A stretch of DNA of 64,000 nucleotides, from positions 10,912,001 to 10,976,000 of the forward strand of contig OZ024764.1 of assembly GCA_964016885.1 (NCBI GenBank), read 5' to 3'. Position numbers and translations under genes: made by a program. Under the pieces are notes generated by a model that was not told the origin of the DNA, searched no databases, and saw only the letters and a list, made by a program, of their open reading frames with translations. This DNA is from Eledone cirrhosa (lineage: Eukaryota). The stretch's first letter is position 1, and each line of letters begins with the position of its first letter. Of this stretch, positions 5,881-48,303 are shown piece after piece.

Positions 5881-6093
5881 ACGAAGGAAATGTGGTAAGG
5901 AACCAGATGGACCATAACGCACCAAAGTACTCAATACTTAGGGTAGTAGAATGGGTAATAGGAACGAGTAGGGCCCCAACGGCTGAGCTCAAGCCGTTTC
6001 GACGGCTAATTCTGGACTAAAATTCTGGACTTTTAGTCCAGAATTAGCCGTCGAAACGGCTTGATCTCAGCCGTCGGGGTCCTACTCGTTCCT
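5881..6093. mobile_element. Family F (TA)n-embedded element with ~135-bp fold-back hairpin containing a hammerhead 3' half
   Basis: Inverted arms 5959-6094; GAAA-cggc..gccg-TC motif; 8 copies in window. Confidence 0.75.
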
Positions 6094-6231
6094 ATATATA
6101 TATATATATATATATATATATATATATATATATATGGAGAGAAGGGGCAGTGAGACAGACAGTCAGTTTAAATGAAGACTTGACATGCCAGGCTGTAAAA
6201 TATATTTGATTTACTGAAGTGAGATAATTTC

Positions 6232-6367
6232 AACTACAACAACAACAACTACAACTACCACCACCACCACCACTACAACAACTACAACTACCACCACCAC
6301 CACCACCACTACAACTACCACCACCACCTCTACTACTACTACTACTACTACTACTACTACTACAACA
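6232..6367. repeat. (CAA)n/(CCA)n/(CTA)n trinucleotide microsatellite
   Basis: Directly visible. Confidence 0.9.
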
Positions 6368-6755
6368 TATGCTTAGTACAAACGAAATGAAGACATCATT
6401 TCTATTTAAACAGATGGTTAGTATTTCGGTGCGAAAGGGTTCGTGTCATGGCGGGGGGGGGTGCTGGTGGTGCTGGTGGTGGTGGTGCTGGTGCTGGTGG
6501 TGGTGGTGCTGGTGGTGAAATCGATACCCAAAAGCATGAAGTTGTAAAGCAAACCACTAGTATATTATCCTATCTCCCCCCCCCTCTCACACTCTCTCTC
6601 CCTCCCTCTCTCTCTCTCTCTCTCTCTCTCTCTCTCTCTATATATATATATATATATATATATATATATATATATATATATGATTTTTAATTTCGTATTT
6701 ATAAAGAAATACGTTATGTACATCCGTCCCTTCAATCTTTCTAATTTCTCCTTCT

Positions 6756-6792
6756 TTCTTCTGATGAAGGACTAGCGTCCGAAACGTTAAAA
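6756..6792 (+). ncRNA. Minimal Penelope-type hammerhead motif
   Basis: CTGATGA-a-ggac tagc gtcc-GAAA-cgtt: perfect 4-bp helix II, palindromic AACGTT helix III, weak helix I; downstream sequence recurs inverted at ~28525-28600. Confidence 0.6.
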
Positions 6793-7216
6793 CCCTCTTC
6801 CCGCTATTTCAAATATTAACCTAATATACTCCTTCCATATACTGTACCGATTGTGTTGTTATTTCTGTTTACCTTTTACACATATATATATATATATATA
6901 TGCTCATGAAATCCACACAGCTTAAGCTGATCGGACTCCCATGTGCTTCTTTTTTCGTATCTTTGCGTTGCTATCCTTCTATGTTTGTTTGCTTGTCTCG
7001 CTCGCTTTACGCGATTTACTTGTCCCAATAGCTTTATTTAGTTATTGCTCGCACCAACTGGAGGTATATGATGTTTAAAGCGATGAAATACCAATGAAGG
7101 TTGGAAAATCACTGATGAAGGACTATTTTATTCATATGTAACCCATGTGCAACCACGCAGTATTCATTCTTCTCATGTTATATATATATATATATATATA
7201 TATATATATATATATA

Positions 7217-44312: not shown

Positions 44313-45059
44313 CCAAGCAAGTTTGTAAGTTCTACAAATTATAGTTTTGTCAGTAGAGATTGTCTCACAACAGGACAACTTGTCTAACCCATGCTAGCAT
44401 GGAAAATGATGATGATGATGAAATGTTGATTAAAATATAAATGACTGAACAATAATTTAAAAGGTGGTACATAAATTCAGTTTATTGTTATACAAAATAT
44501 TCAGTAGTAAAAAAAAAAACAACTGAACAATATATATATATATGACATTAAGTAACAAAGGAAAAAGGAGGGTGAATTTAGCAATAAAAGAAACGAAGAA
44601 GGCGAGGGACTGACAAGCTTTATATCGAGCATGGGTAACCTTTTTCGAGCAGTGAGCCATATAAGATGTGGCTCATCATAAGGTGGGCTAGGATTTAGAC
44701 CCATGGCACTTCAGGTTTGCGGGGCCCCTCATACACAAAAAGTTAGAATACAAAGCAAACCTGCCCTGCAATTTTACATATCAAAGTTAGCTTGGCACAA
44801 GTAATTGGATTGAAATGTTATATTTACAGGTATTAAATTCAAAAATTCTAACCATCCTAAAACTAAAAAAACCCAGCTGAGGGCACAAATAAATTGCTAC
44901 AGCCATCGTTTGTGGGGCCTGCCTCGGGGGCAATTTCTCCCATTAAATCTGGCCCTGTATGTACCTGTAACTGCAAGGGGATGCACGGCAATTGCCCTCA
45001 TTAAATCCAGCCCACCACGGGCCATACTACTAAACAATTCAAGACTGTTTTGAAATTAG

Positions 45060-45385
45060 GCAAAGCCAAACAGGTGCCAGTTTGTCCTAGGGTTTCAGCT
45101 GTGTCCTACAAAGGGCAAGGATATTGCTGCAACGGTCACCCCAGCTCGTGGGGCTCCTTCCCCTCAGGCAGGTTGCTGTCTTTCCGATTTTATGAAAGAA
45201 ATCGGCAGTGTGGGGACCGAGGTCAGCCAAAGTCTTGACAATGACTGGGGCAAAAAGGAAGCAGTCGATCAAGTCTCGCGGTATTTCGTTATCTTGCTCT
45301 CCTCTGCATTGTGGGCAGTGACAATGCCCAGGTTTCTGACCAGAGCGACATGGCTGGAGGCAAGGAATAAGTCGCATCCAAGATT
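45060..45385 (-). mobile_element. Restriction-like endonuclease fragment of a CRE/R2-type non-LTR retrotransposon
   Basis: WDAT..; FLFAPVIVKTLADLGPHTADFFHKIG matches the F.P.A.ET.G..G...L..IG pattern. Confidence 0.5.
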
Positions 45386-46198
45386 AGAGATTTACCTATC
45401 AGTTTTATTTAAACTTCAGGGTGTAAATAATAGTCAGGCAGAGAGTTAAGGTTAGAGCTCAGCTGAAATAACGCAAGGTTTAAAAAATGTGGAGGTTTCT
45501 TGTATAACAAACACAACCGGCGCATACCAACATGTAAAATGGAGATTTTAAAAATTGATAGCAGGGATGATAAACAAATATATTTCAAGACAAAAGTCAT
45601 GTTAATACTAGTAAATTCCTATTTCAAAATGACAAGCATCCAGCCCAAACTGTTAGGGGGTCGTTCTGGTGCCAAGATAAAAAACATCCAGTCCATAGTG
45701 TTAGGGGGCATTCTGGTGCCGAGATGACTAGCATCCAGTCCATGGTGTTAGGGGGTTGTTCCGGTGCCAAGATGAAAAGCATCCATCCAGTGGTTATTTT
45801 GGCGCCATAAGGAAAAACACCTAATCTACCCTGTAAAGTGGTGGTGCCATAATGGGGAGCACACAGATCTATCATGTTAGATGAGTGTTCTGGTGCCATG
45901 ATGAAAAGCACCCAGTCCACGGTTAAGTGGTCTTTCTGGTACCACAATGAAAAGCACCTAGTCCACCCTGTAAAGTGGAAATGCTGGTGACACCAGAAAA
46001 GCATCCAGTATACATTGTAATATGGTTGATGTTAGGAAGAGAATACAGCCATAGCTATCAAGCTAAAACCAGATGAGACATGGTCACCAGACCTGACCTG
46101 GCTAACCTCACAGCATGACAACCTATCTAACCCATGCCAGCATGGAAAATAGGAGTAAAACAGTGACAATGGTGATCGTCATCGTAATGATATGACTT

Positions 46199-47059
46199 CT
46201 ATAAAGTATGAATAGCAACATGTTTAGTCAATATATTTCTTTGAGAGAATGACTTGCCGCATATTTCGCAGTAATATGGCTTCTCTCCTGTATGAGTACG
46301 TTTGTGAGTATTTAAGCCGTTGCTTCGAGAGAAGGATTTACCACAGATATCACATTGGTGTGGCTTCTCTCCCGTATGGATACGTATGTGAATAGTTAAA
46401 GTACCGATATCAGAGAATGCTTTACCACAGATGTCACAGTCGTATGGCTTCTCTCCTGTATGAGTACGAATGTGTTTAGTTAGTTGACCAGTCTCAGTGA
46501 ATGATTTATCACAGATATCACAATGATATGGCTTCTCTCCTGTATGCATACGCTTGTGCCTAGTCAAGTGACCAGTCATAGAGAATGATTTACCACATGT
46601 ATCACAGGTATATGGCTTCACTCCGGTATGAGTACGTTCGTGAATACCCAAATGACCTTTTTGAGAGAATGACTTACCGCAGGTATCACACTGATATGGT
46701 AACACTCCTGTATGAAGAATTTTGTGTCTATTTAAAGCACAGCTTCCAGAGAATGATTTACCACATGTGTCACAGTGATATGGTTTCTCTCCTGTATGAG
46801 TACGTTTATGAGAAACTAAGCTACTACTTACAGCAAATGACCTACCACAAACGTCACACGGGTATGGTGTCTCGCCAGTATGAACACGTTTGTGTTTAGC
46901 TAAGTCACTGCTAGCCCGGAAAAGTTTACCACAGGTATCACACAGATGTGTTTTTCCTCCGGCGTGAAGATATTTGGAATTGGGGAGCTTTTGTTTTTCA
47001 GAGGATGATGTTTCAGAGTCATCAAAGGTGTAGGACGAATTTCCTACCTCTTCCGACAT
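46199..47059 (-). CDS. C2H2 zinc-finger protein, 9 intact fingers plus a degenerate first finger, 286 aa
   Basis: Tandem C2H2 with TGEKPY linkers; paralog of 55426-56286. Confidence 0.93.
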   Translation of the reverse strand: MSEEVGNSSYTFDDSETSSSEKQKLPNSKYLHAGGKTHLCDTCGKLFRASSDLAKHKRVHTGETPYPCDVCGRSFAVSSSLVSHKRTHTGEKPYHCDTCGKSFSGSCALNRHKILHTGVLPYQCDTCGKSFSQKGHLGIHERTHTGVKPYTCDTCGKSFSMTGHLTRHKRMHTGEKPYHCDICDKSFTETGQLTKHIRTHTGEKPYDCDICGKAFSDIGTLTIHIRIHTGEKPHQCDICGKSFSRSNGLNTHKRTHTGEKPYYCEICGKSFSQRNILTKHVAIHTL

Positions 47060-48107
47060 CTTTTCTTAAATATATCAATACTTCAAATTTCACTTATAAT
47101 TCACTTTCTATAATTTCTCAATACAATATATGAGGTGTTGATTTGATAAATGCTTCTGATGAAGGAAATATTTCTACAGCTATATTCAAACTCTTAACAT
47201 CCTGTAATGATTACAAAATATTTAACAAAAAATATATTCAGAAGCAGGTTTGATAATTCAGATGTTTATAGAATCTTTACTGCAAAAATTTGCAATATTT
47301 GAGTAAAATCTTAAATTTTAATAAGATGGAGTCATAGTGATGTTTGCAACTTTTTCAAGAAAACCTTACTAATGTGGTTTCATGTGGTTTGTTAATTCAT
47401 ATGTTTATAATATCTTTACAAATAAACAGATCCCTGCAAAAAAATTGCAGTAATAAAGTAAAGACATTATTTTTTAATACGATGCAGTCATTGTGTTGTT
47501 TTGTATTTTCCAAGAGAATCTTGGGGTTCCAAGTAGTTTGTTAATTCATATGTCTATAATATCTTTACTAATAAACAGATCCTGCAAAAACTTGCAGTAA
47601 TAAAGTAAAGACCTTAATTTTTAATTTGGTTCAGCCATCGTTCCATTTTGTACTTTCCAAGAGAATGTCTTGCTAATGAGGTTTCATAAGGTAGAGGACT
47701 ATAAAAAAAGGGTCTTTAATGCCAATGTCATCTGATATTCTGAAATAATAGAGAAACATTATAAGATGTTTGGAAAGTAGAAATACAACAATGGAAACTT
47801 TACAATATTTCTATAAACTGTAGAAACAGACCTATCTATCTTCACATATATATCTACATATATATATATGTGTGTGTGTGTATATATATCAAGTCGATTG
47901 ACTTTTGTCAAATCCGACCAAGGAAACAATGTTGCCGTTGGTCTTTCCAATTGCTAATACTATCTATCAGTCGCAACTCCAGGTAGGAGCAACGTAAAGT
48001 AAAGTGTCTTGCTCAAGGACATAACGCATCACCCGGTCCAGGAATTGAACTGACAACCTCACGATTGCGAATCCAATTCTCTAACCACTCAGCCTTCACT
48101 GCGTGTG

Positions 48108-48303
48108 TAGGAAAAAGTATGACCCCAACGGCAGAGCTCGAGCCGTTTCGACGGCTATTTCTGAGTCCAGAAATAGCCGTCGAAACGGCTTGAGCTCTGC
48201 CGCCGTCGGGGTCATACTTTTTCCTATTTCCCACTCTACTACCCTAAGTATTGAGTACTCTGGTGCGTTATGGTCCATCTAGTTCCTTGCCACAATTCCC
48301 TTA
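48108..48303. mobile_element. Family F copy with fold-back hairpin, in the probable intron of the ZNF gene
   Basis: Inverted arms ~48108-48226. Confidence 0.78.

Follow-up and report, generated by a model that had tools for sequence, protein, structure and literature searches.

Short head-to-head copies of a Hydra-type Penelope-like retrotransposon in Eledone cirrhosa and a likely capped RNA start inside its hammerhead ribozyme

The window analysed here comprises 64,000 nucleotides of contig OZ024764.1 of Eledone cirrhosa (GenBank assembly GCA_964016885.1, positions 10912001-10976000), within a 3.0-Gb genome. It is rich in (TA)n tracts, holds open reading frames (ORFs) for C2H2 zinc fingers and carries twelve arms of a repeat named family F, arranged as four palindromes and four solitary arms (Table 1). 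An arm is one copy of the end of the element; a short arm stops at about +21, and a long arm adds a tail of about 78 nt. Positions are counted from the C of a GTC triplet (position 0), the predicted cut site of a hammerhead ribozyme, with minus signs for upstream positions. Every palindrome in the window joins a short arm, ending near +21 against (TA)n, to a tailed arm. An earlier note on this DNA had listed eight copies of family F, all of which are present, within or adjoining (TA)n. The string GAAA-CGGC-loop-GCCG-TC that it described was found with its loop variants (the copies at 7497 and 40934 begin 3' of GAAA), and CTGANGA is indeed missing from all eight copies. The four palindromes (5958-6095, 7294-7420, 26421-26547 and 48108-48226) measure about 120-138 nt, and their centres, all different, lie 18-27 nt upstream of GAAA. 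A 19-nt motif of family F, the 3' strand of helix II plus GAAA, has 57,420 exact matches in the genome against none for its reversed control, so that the family is far more abundant than chance would allow.

Table 1. Arms of family F in the window, with predicted cleavage positions
Feature	Position	Strand	Predicted cleavage	5' end and remarks
Palindrome 1, long (tailed) arm	5881..6021	-	C 5978	5' end about -43
Palindrome 1, short arm	6032..6094	+	C 6075	stops at the +21 site against (TA)n; the centre of the palindrome, 6022-6031, contains a re-copied piece
Palindrome 2, long arm	7217..7355	-	7314	stops at -40 with a non-native G
Palindrome 2, short arm	7359..7419	+	C 7400	subtype differs from partner; non-native G at 7359, then A at -40
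Solitary long arm, divergent subfamily	7497..7614	-		truncated within helix III (about -17)
Solitary long arm, divergent subfamily	10077..10213	+	C 10113	truncated at about -35; helix II 3' strand is GATCTAGCTG
Solitary short arm	15282..15334	-	C 15300	stops at about -34; no tail, no partner
Palindrome 3, short arm	26422..26482	-	C 26441	stops at about -41
Palindrome 3, long arm	26486..26625	+	C 26527	order: helix II 3' strand, GAAA, helix III, GTC, helix I 3' strand, +21 site, tail of about 78 nt
Solitary long arm	40934..41052	+	C 40952	truncated within helix III (about -17)
Palindrome 4, short arm	48108..48163	-	48127	
Palindrome 4, long arm	48163..48305	+		G at 48163 before A at -40; the G may be the partner's base

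The inversions arose independently, as the earlier note had supposed: 69 distinct centres were counted among 82 palindromic pairs at sampled loci. Its companion claim, that the arms of a palindrome resemble each other more than they resemble other copies, held on average. Mean identity is 0.946 within pairs and 0.886 between them, and both arms are of one subtype in 31 of 35 typed pairs, where shuffling would give 7. Pair by pair the claim often failed: the arm's own partner was its best or tied match in only 24 of the 82 cases, the two arms at 7217 belong to different subtypes, and the long arms at 5881 and 7217 have in common a variant that is missing from their own short arms. The 69 centres, the long copies devoid of a palindrome at this place and the lack of any single inherited hairpin led us to reject a terminus of the Helitron type or of a miniature inverted-repeat transposable element (MITE). 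A retrozyme of the kind without long terminal repeats (LTRs) was also rejected, since the window copies hold half a ribozyme and form no tandem arrays. A stub of an inverted arm at the start of the copies at 10077, 7497 and 40934 was considered and dropped, because GGATC at 10077 belongs to the native sequence of the divergent subfamily and the GGCC of the other two matches that subfamily's helix III. Insertions of family F are nested in one another's TA tracts at loci L022, L024, L018 and L111, as are those at 7217 and 7497 in the window.

The sequence of longer copies elsewhere in the genome identifies family F as the 5'-truncated ends of a Hydra-type Penelope-like element (PLE). Several of the 30 best genomic matches run upstream into common, non-palindromic sequence, and the order in long copies is ORF, a 3' region of 0.7-1.2 kb, hammerhead fold and tail. 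Two loci, L205 and L207, have the arrangement pLTR-tail-ORF-pLTR (pLTR, pseudo-LTR), the 3' terminal sequence thus also preceding the ORF. No match to this ORF occurs anywhere in the window. It encodes at least 710 amino acids; open frames of 710 and 695 amino acids contain YRDD and VIYQ..YIG (motifs found by eye), and the full set of motifs comprises RLRWR, SDKT, YRDD, CNCPDRSxCP, a C-terminal VIYQ..YIG, CNLC and CKH. The CxCx5C linker is present, and CCHH is missing between GIY and YIG. These features, together with insertion into (TA)n, match those of the Hydra clade, which is described as having reverse transcriptase followed by GIY-YIG, DKT, CxCx5C, no CCHH, CxxC/CxH and (TA)n targets (Craig et al. 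2021, PMC8557442). Hydra-1_Obim, a member of that clade, has the same single-ORF layout, the same targets and a hammerhead near its 3' end, and the N-terminal half of its protein is visibly similar to that of family F. The clade has RWK where family F has RWR (RLRWR in L196 and L207), a conservative variant, and the Hydra-1_Obim ribozyme core is listed as CUGAAGAG, whereas family F has a U3-A8 core and a long helix II (PMC8557442). Three strings specific to family F found no match in the accessible part of the PMC8557442 supplement, and family F appears from its sequence to be a family other than Hydra-1_Obim. Searches of Pfam and PDB with the ORF gave no match, so the assignment to endonuclease-bearing (EN+) Penelope-like elements and to Hydra rests on the motifs and on the likeness to Hydra-1_Obim seen by eye. 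The Naiad clade was set aside: it has an N-terminal GIY-YIG and DKA, whereas the endonuclease here is C-terminal and the motif reads DKT. Divergent Hydra-like ORFs lie within or beside family F insertions at L197:2294-3649 (between family F arms) and L206:5654-8264.

The long copies also supply the rest of the ribozyme. The earlier note had taken the short copies for the 3' half of a hammerhead, correctly: the complement of helix I, ACCCC, is found upstream in long copies, which read ACCCC-TTGANAA-G, long helix II, GAAA, helix III, GTC, GGGGT. The core is not the CUGANGA that it expected, however, but the variant UUGANAA (U3-A8), whose pattern has 3,081 exact matches in the genome against none for its control. 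Sampled full copies carry UUGANAA in 61 of 63 cases and CUGAGAA in two; core position 7 is C in 26, A in 13, G in 11 and T in 11, plus two copies with CTGAGAAG. Searching the genome for CTGANGA 5' of the ribozyme's 3' half gave 37 matches, of which 30 were inspected; all but one were coincidences at junctions or flanks without helix I, the exception being a degenerate long copy with TTGAAAAG as its real core. Helices I, II and III can be formed with G10.1-C11.1 and A15.1-U16.1, and GAAA and GUC are in place. With the named structure 93% of cells are paired, as compared with 35-53% in slid controls; the three-way junction was the predicted fold in three of five copies; and in the divergent subfamily a pair of helix II has changed on both sides in two long copies. 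Against these stand folding z-scores of only -0.4 to -2.1 in the five copies, slight covariation within the main subfamilies (two pairs with two-sided change, a level reached by 30 of 500 shuffles) and the failure of Rfam to report a hammerhead in three full copies at E values up to 10. A scan of the window itself with Rfam gave no hammerhead among the 150 of 310 matches listed; these matches and those for the full copies were microsatellite and hairpin noise. The identification as a type I hammerhead with a variant U3-A8 core, predicted to cut itself after GUC, holds. Such cores are known from schistosome PLEs (PMC4209133); those of Schistosoma mansoni share with family F the core covariation, the location in the pLTR, G10.1-C11.1 and motif pairs on opposite strands, and differ in that family F has a full helix III hairpin of 4-5 bp and a long helix II interrupted by an internal loop.

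The position at which the arms stop was examined in the first 100 arms listed by a pattern downstream of helix III, all of which were recovered and retained. As many as 86 reach -30, 75 reach -35 and 44 reach -40, but the number falls to 17 at -45, 13 at -60 and 11 at -200. The modal end is -40 (11 arms), followed by -39 (9) and -41 (8); two arms scored at -6 have an internal deletion and truly end at about -41 to -43, and four arms of the divergent subfamily are under-scored. Consistent with such a drop, the 57,420 matches to the helix II 3' strand plus GAAA are 19 times the 3,081 matches to the core 55 nt upstream; both are counts of exact matches with patterns that cover the subfamilies unequally, a caveat on the comparison. 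In nine of nine reference copies, -40 is the A of TTAGT or TCAGT (TYAGT), a context that resembles the initiator consensus TCAKTY, and the divergent subfamily, whose helix II is different, keeps the same register. At the other side the arms have two fixed 3' ends, about +21 and about +99 from the cut site. The earlier note was therefore right in that the ends cluster sharply within helix II; the stall of reverse transcription to which it attributed them was not supported.

It had proposed that reverse transcription stalls in helix II and that the stalled complementary DNA (cDNA) folds back and primes itself; in this element such synthesis would start in the downstream pLTR. Self-priming has been put forward for PLE palindromes before (PMC3846280), and the clustering inside helix II, together with the minority of arms that pass the -40 site, would suit a stall. 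The ends, however, lie 10-20 nt inside the helix and not at its base, and the TYAGT register persists where helix II differs. At -41 the native sequence has T or C, yet in the sampled loci all 16 arms ending at -40 have G at -41; genome-wide, arms with this end carry G in 7,108 cases and A in 1,195. One base downstream, non-native G (2,265) makes up 22% against 8,051 for C or T. A stall does not account for a G confined to one position. In 21 of 30 G arms inspected, the G does not derive from the partner's -36/-37 base, and in five of the inspected arms it is present on both arms of the pair. Continuation into the native core was seen in 0 of 41 G arms and in 56 of 120 T/C arms at sampled loci, which are enriched for long copies, so the G is not an allele of the sampled long copies. 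At least five subtypes carry it, all of them represented also by long copies linked to the ORF. In full-length L1 insertions, capped 5' ends are marked by an extra G (PMC11702581). The likeness of the non-native G to that mark makes the stop likely to be a capped RNA start rather than a stall in helix II. The arm edge at -40 thus likely marks, by this sequence signature, the capped start of the element RNA, inside the ribozyme. An internal promoter inside the pLTR has been described for Penelope of D. virilis (PMC2377424). No paper stating a cap or strong-stop reading of PLE stubs was found in a search that missed most subscription papers and bioRxiv supplements, and the accessible parts of PMC13282606 and of bioRxiv 10.64898/2026.07.22.740005 do not mention the idea. 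At L090:2141-2290 the cut site of a full hammerhead is connected, through a short linker and a G, to a second copy that begins at -40, so that a cut-site end and a cap-type start meet head to tail.

A different account of the same edge would keep the priming events discussed below and attribute -40 either to a stall or to RNA processing, for instance at the YAG of -41 to -39, which resembles a 3' splice site. Native TTTAG or TTCAG does resemble a splice acceptor, the intron of D. virilis Penelope ends at helix I (PMC4209133), and the ends are spread from -33 to -44. Splicing would cut at -38, however, yet the arms keep AG and gain a G; the junctions show no common upstream exon; and a stall at -40 offers no reason for G over A at a single position. 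We regard this account as improbable.

Some observations also weigh against a capped start at -40. The edge is wider than one base, most arms stopping 1-10 nt short of it, and about seven sampled arms truly reach -43 through a run of T (both arms at 5881 are among them), which a second start or untemplated addition of A would explain. The partner's -36/-37 base could have supplied the G in 9 of the 30 inspected G arms, and in about five of the remaining 21 the G matches the partner's -41 base, the tail or a GA flank. A single perfect palindrome, moreover, is indistinguishable from the product of a snap-back.

The composition of the palindromes bears on how they were made. Of the 82 short pairs, 76 join a long to a short arm, one is long-long, one short-short and four are untyped. 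Of 15 loci with long copies, one held a tandem and two held unpaired copies; the other 12 were simple pairs joined 0.5-3 kb upstream, all of them of a long and a short arm. Among 48 short arms, the partner consists of the tail only in 11 and is missing in seven, and 12 of these 18 reach -33 or further. The short arm is the longer one in L008 and L198, and 4 of 35 typed pairs, that at 7217 included, mix subtypes. With 76 of 82 pairs short plus tailed and 11 partners reduced to the tail, two primings explain the palindromes better than a snap-back. A single self-primed cDNA cannot give pairs whose arms each hold sequence that the other lacks; two templated syntheses are required wherever the partner is tail only, the short arm is the longer one or the subtypes are mixed. 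Palindrome centres, moreover, contain neither the native loop nor the native 5' strand of helix II. Nor is the ribozyme needed as a template for folding back, since in long head-to-head pairs the junction lies at a distance of hundreds to thousands of bases from it. What speaks for the snap-back is that partners mostly share a subtype (31 of 35) and that some, as in L125, have private changes near the centre in common. Taken together with the stops described above, stalling and self-priming seem to us an unlikely source of these copies. The editing that the earlier note suggested looking for over the hairpins was not apparent: in 299 arms there was no excess of the adenosine-to-inosine type (A>G 12 at four sites, T>C 5 at two), and CpG-type changes dominate the substitutions in the DNA copies.

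PLEs had been known to form inverted copies and tails (PMC8557442), and inverted, 5'-truncated pLTRs with the same head-to-head copies, tail on one arm and palindromic junctions have been described (PMC8557442; PMC3846280). The published tail measures 30-40 nt and that of family F about 78 nt; PMC3846280 accounts for the palindromes by self-priming on an antisense template, whereas family F points to two primings on a capped sense RNA. The PLE protein Poseidon_Ac cuts and extends both strands, and two internal start sites define its tail (PMC11167929). It thus offers, in vitro and from a different clade, the same cutting and extension of two strands, AT-rich targets and two starts of reverse transcription near the pLTR-ORF junction. 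In L1 twin priming both DNA ends prime on RNA, as proposed here, and full-length copies bear the extra G; the two L1 cDNAs, however, mostly cover different parts of the RNA, whereas those of family F have fixed starts near the 5' end, overlap and give a palindrome (PMC11702581).

We consider it probable, judging from the patterns in these copies, that most of them are DNA versions of the first 60 or 140 letters of a capped RNA, made from two fixed start points and joined head to head. Transcription would begin at the A of the initiator-like TYAGT at -40, inside helix II, so that the 5' end of the RNA would be half a ribozyme. The protein of the element would cut both strands of a (TA)n tract; one DNA end would prime at +21 and its counterpart at +99, the template in most cases being a single RNA or RNAs from one source. 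Both cDNAs would run off the 5' end of the RNA, often adding a C opposite the cap, and the two ends, slightly trimmed, would be joined into a palindrome with one tailed arm. Failure of one arm would leave a solitary arm or a tail-only partner. The roughly one arm in eight that extends far upstream may reflect priming in the downstream pLTR, read-through RNA or a template jump.

Alternatively, the short forms might be a non-autonomous derivative, similar to a short interspersed nuclear element (SINE) or a MITE, that amplifies from a few short masters and inherits both edge and G. Short arms are about 19-fold more numerous than long ones, a few centres recur three or four times, and short copies would retain a promoter downstream of the start. 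Set against this, the 82 pairs have 69 distinct centres, and the G occurs in five or more subtypes also present as long, ORF-linked copies. We hold such a derivative to be very unlikely. Re-transcription of short copies would itself fit synthesis from a capped RNA, because the edge would still be the RNA start. A wider scheme, which we offer tentatively and think doubtful, has the RNA start in its own ribozyme: the copy at the 5' end, unable to cut, would retain the two priming sites, and cutting would fall to the complete copy at the 3' end. The stretch of 40 nt between cap and cut site would then serve as a terminal repeat like retroviral R; strong-stop cDNAs ending at the cap would jump to the cut 3' end and rebuild the pLTR, and the palindromes, tens of thousands in number, would be strong-stop products integrated without jumping.

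A second, PLE-like family in the window (42903-42967 and 63787-63914) combines a canonical CTGATGA core with a short helix II and likewise forms palindromes of short and long arms. The stop in its arms, often accompanied by a non-native G, falls on the A of a native TCAGC that lies immediately upstream of helix I and not within helix II, a position that a helix II stall would not predict. In the first 100 of 796 non-native ends, a count that left out loci biased towards G by their query, the base, scored by eye, was A in 54, G in 36 and T in 10. At least 28 of the 54 A's come from a self-complementary junction; as a control this family is supportive of a capped start but weaker. One of its copies, near 1500 in L269, has G at the -1 position yet native sequence upstream, and a jump after copying of the cap, or a point mutation, would fit. 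A perfect palindrome with 28-bp arms at 58286-58354, containing GTCGAAA- and CTGAAG-like strings, is possibly a third family of the same kind. Further CTGATGA motifs lie beside TA tracts at 6761 (+), 7112 (+), 4944 (-), 43245 (+), 47156 (+) and 56386 (+); that at 6761 has the look of a minimal PLE hammerhead, and the others include two repeated pairs, 4944/7112 and 47156/56386.

The remainder of the window includes near-perfect palindromes unrelated to family F (42088-42162 and 25668-25769) and four ORFs for C2H2 zinc-finger arrays (37869-38906, 46199-47065, 55426-56298 and 61378-62367), those at 46199 and 55426 being close paralogues. The same 72-bp minisatellite occurs in both orientations (18255-19567, 30762-31681, 43563-43690 and 53817-54010), and a 73-bp minisatellite is found at 23069 and 28942.

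The kind of element and the shapes of its insertions are already known; the step beyond the papers cited here is a large, position-controlled genomic signature that most copies likely end at a capped RNA start in the ribozyme. PLEs are the closest relatives of telomerase, and the origin of their pseudo-LTRs, tails and inverted copies and the role of the hammerhead have been called unsettled (PMC8557442; PMC3846280; PMC11167929). The cap signature, carried by about 7,000 genomic copies, predicts the start of the RNA to the base, inside the ribozyme, and argues for a capped sense template and against the antisense self-priming proposed earlier. The short palindromes of this genome that make up this very large class would thereby be explained as by-products of one element, and the capped start would provide a testable clue to how PLEs copy themselves.

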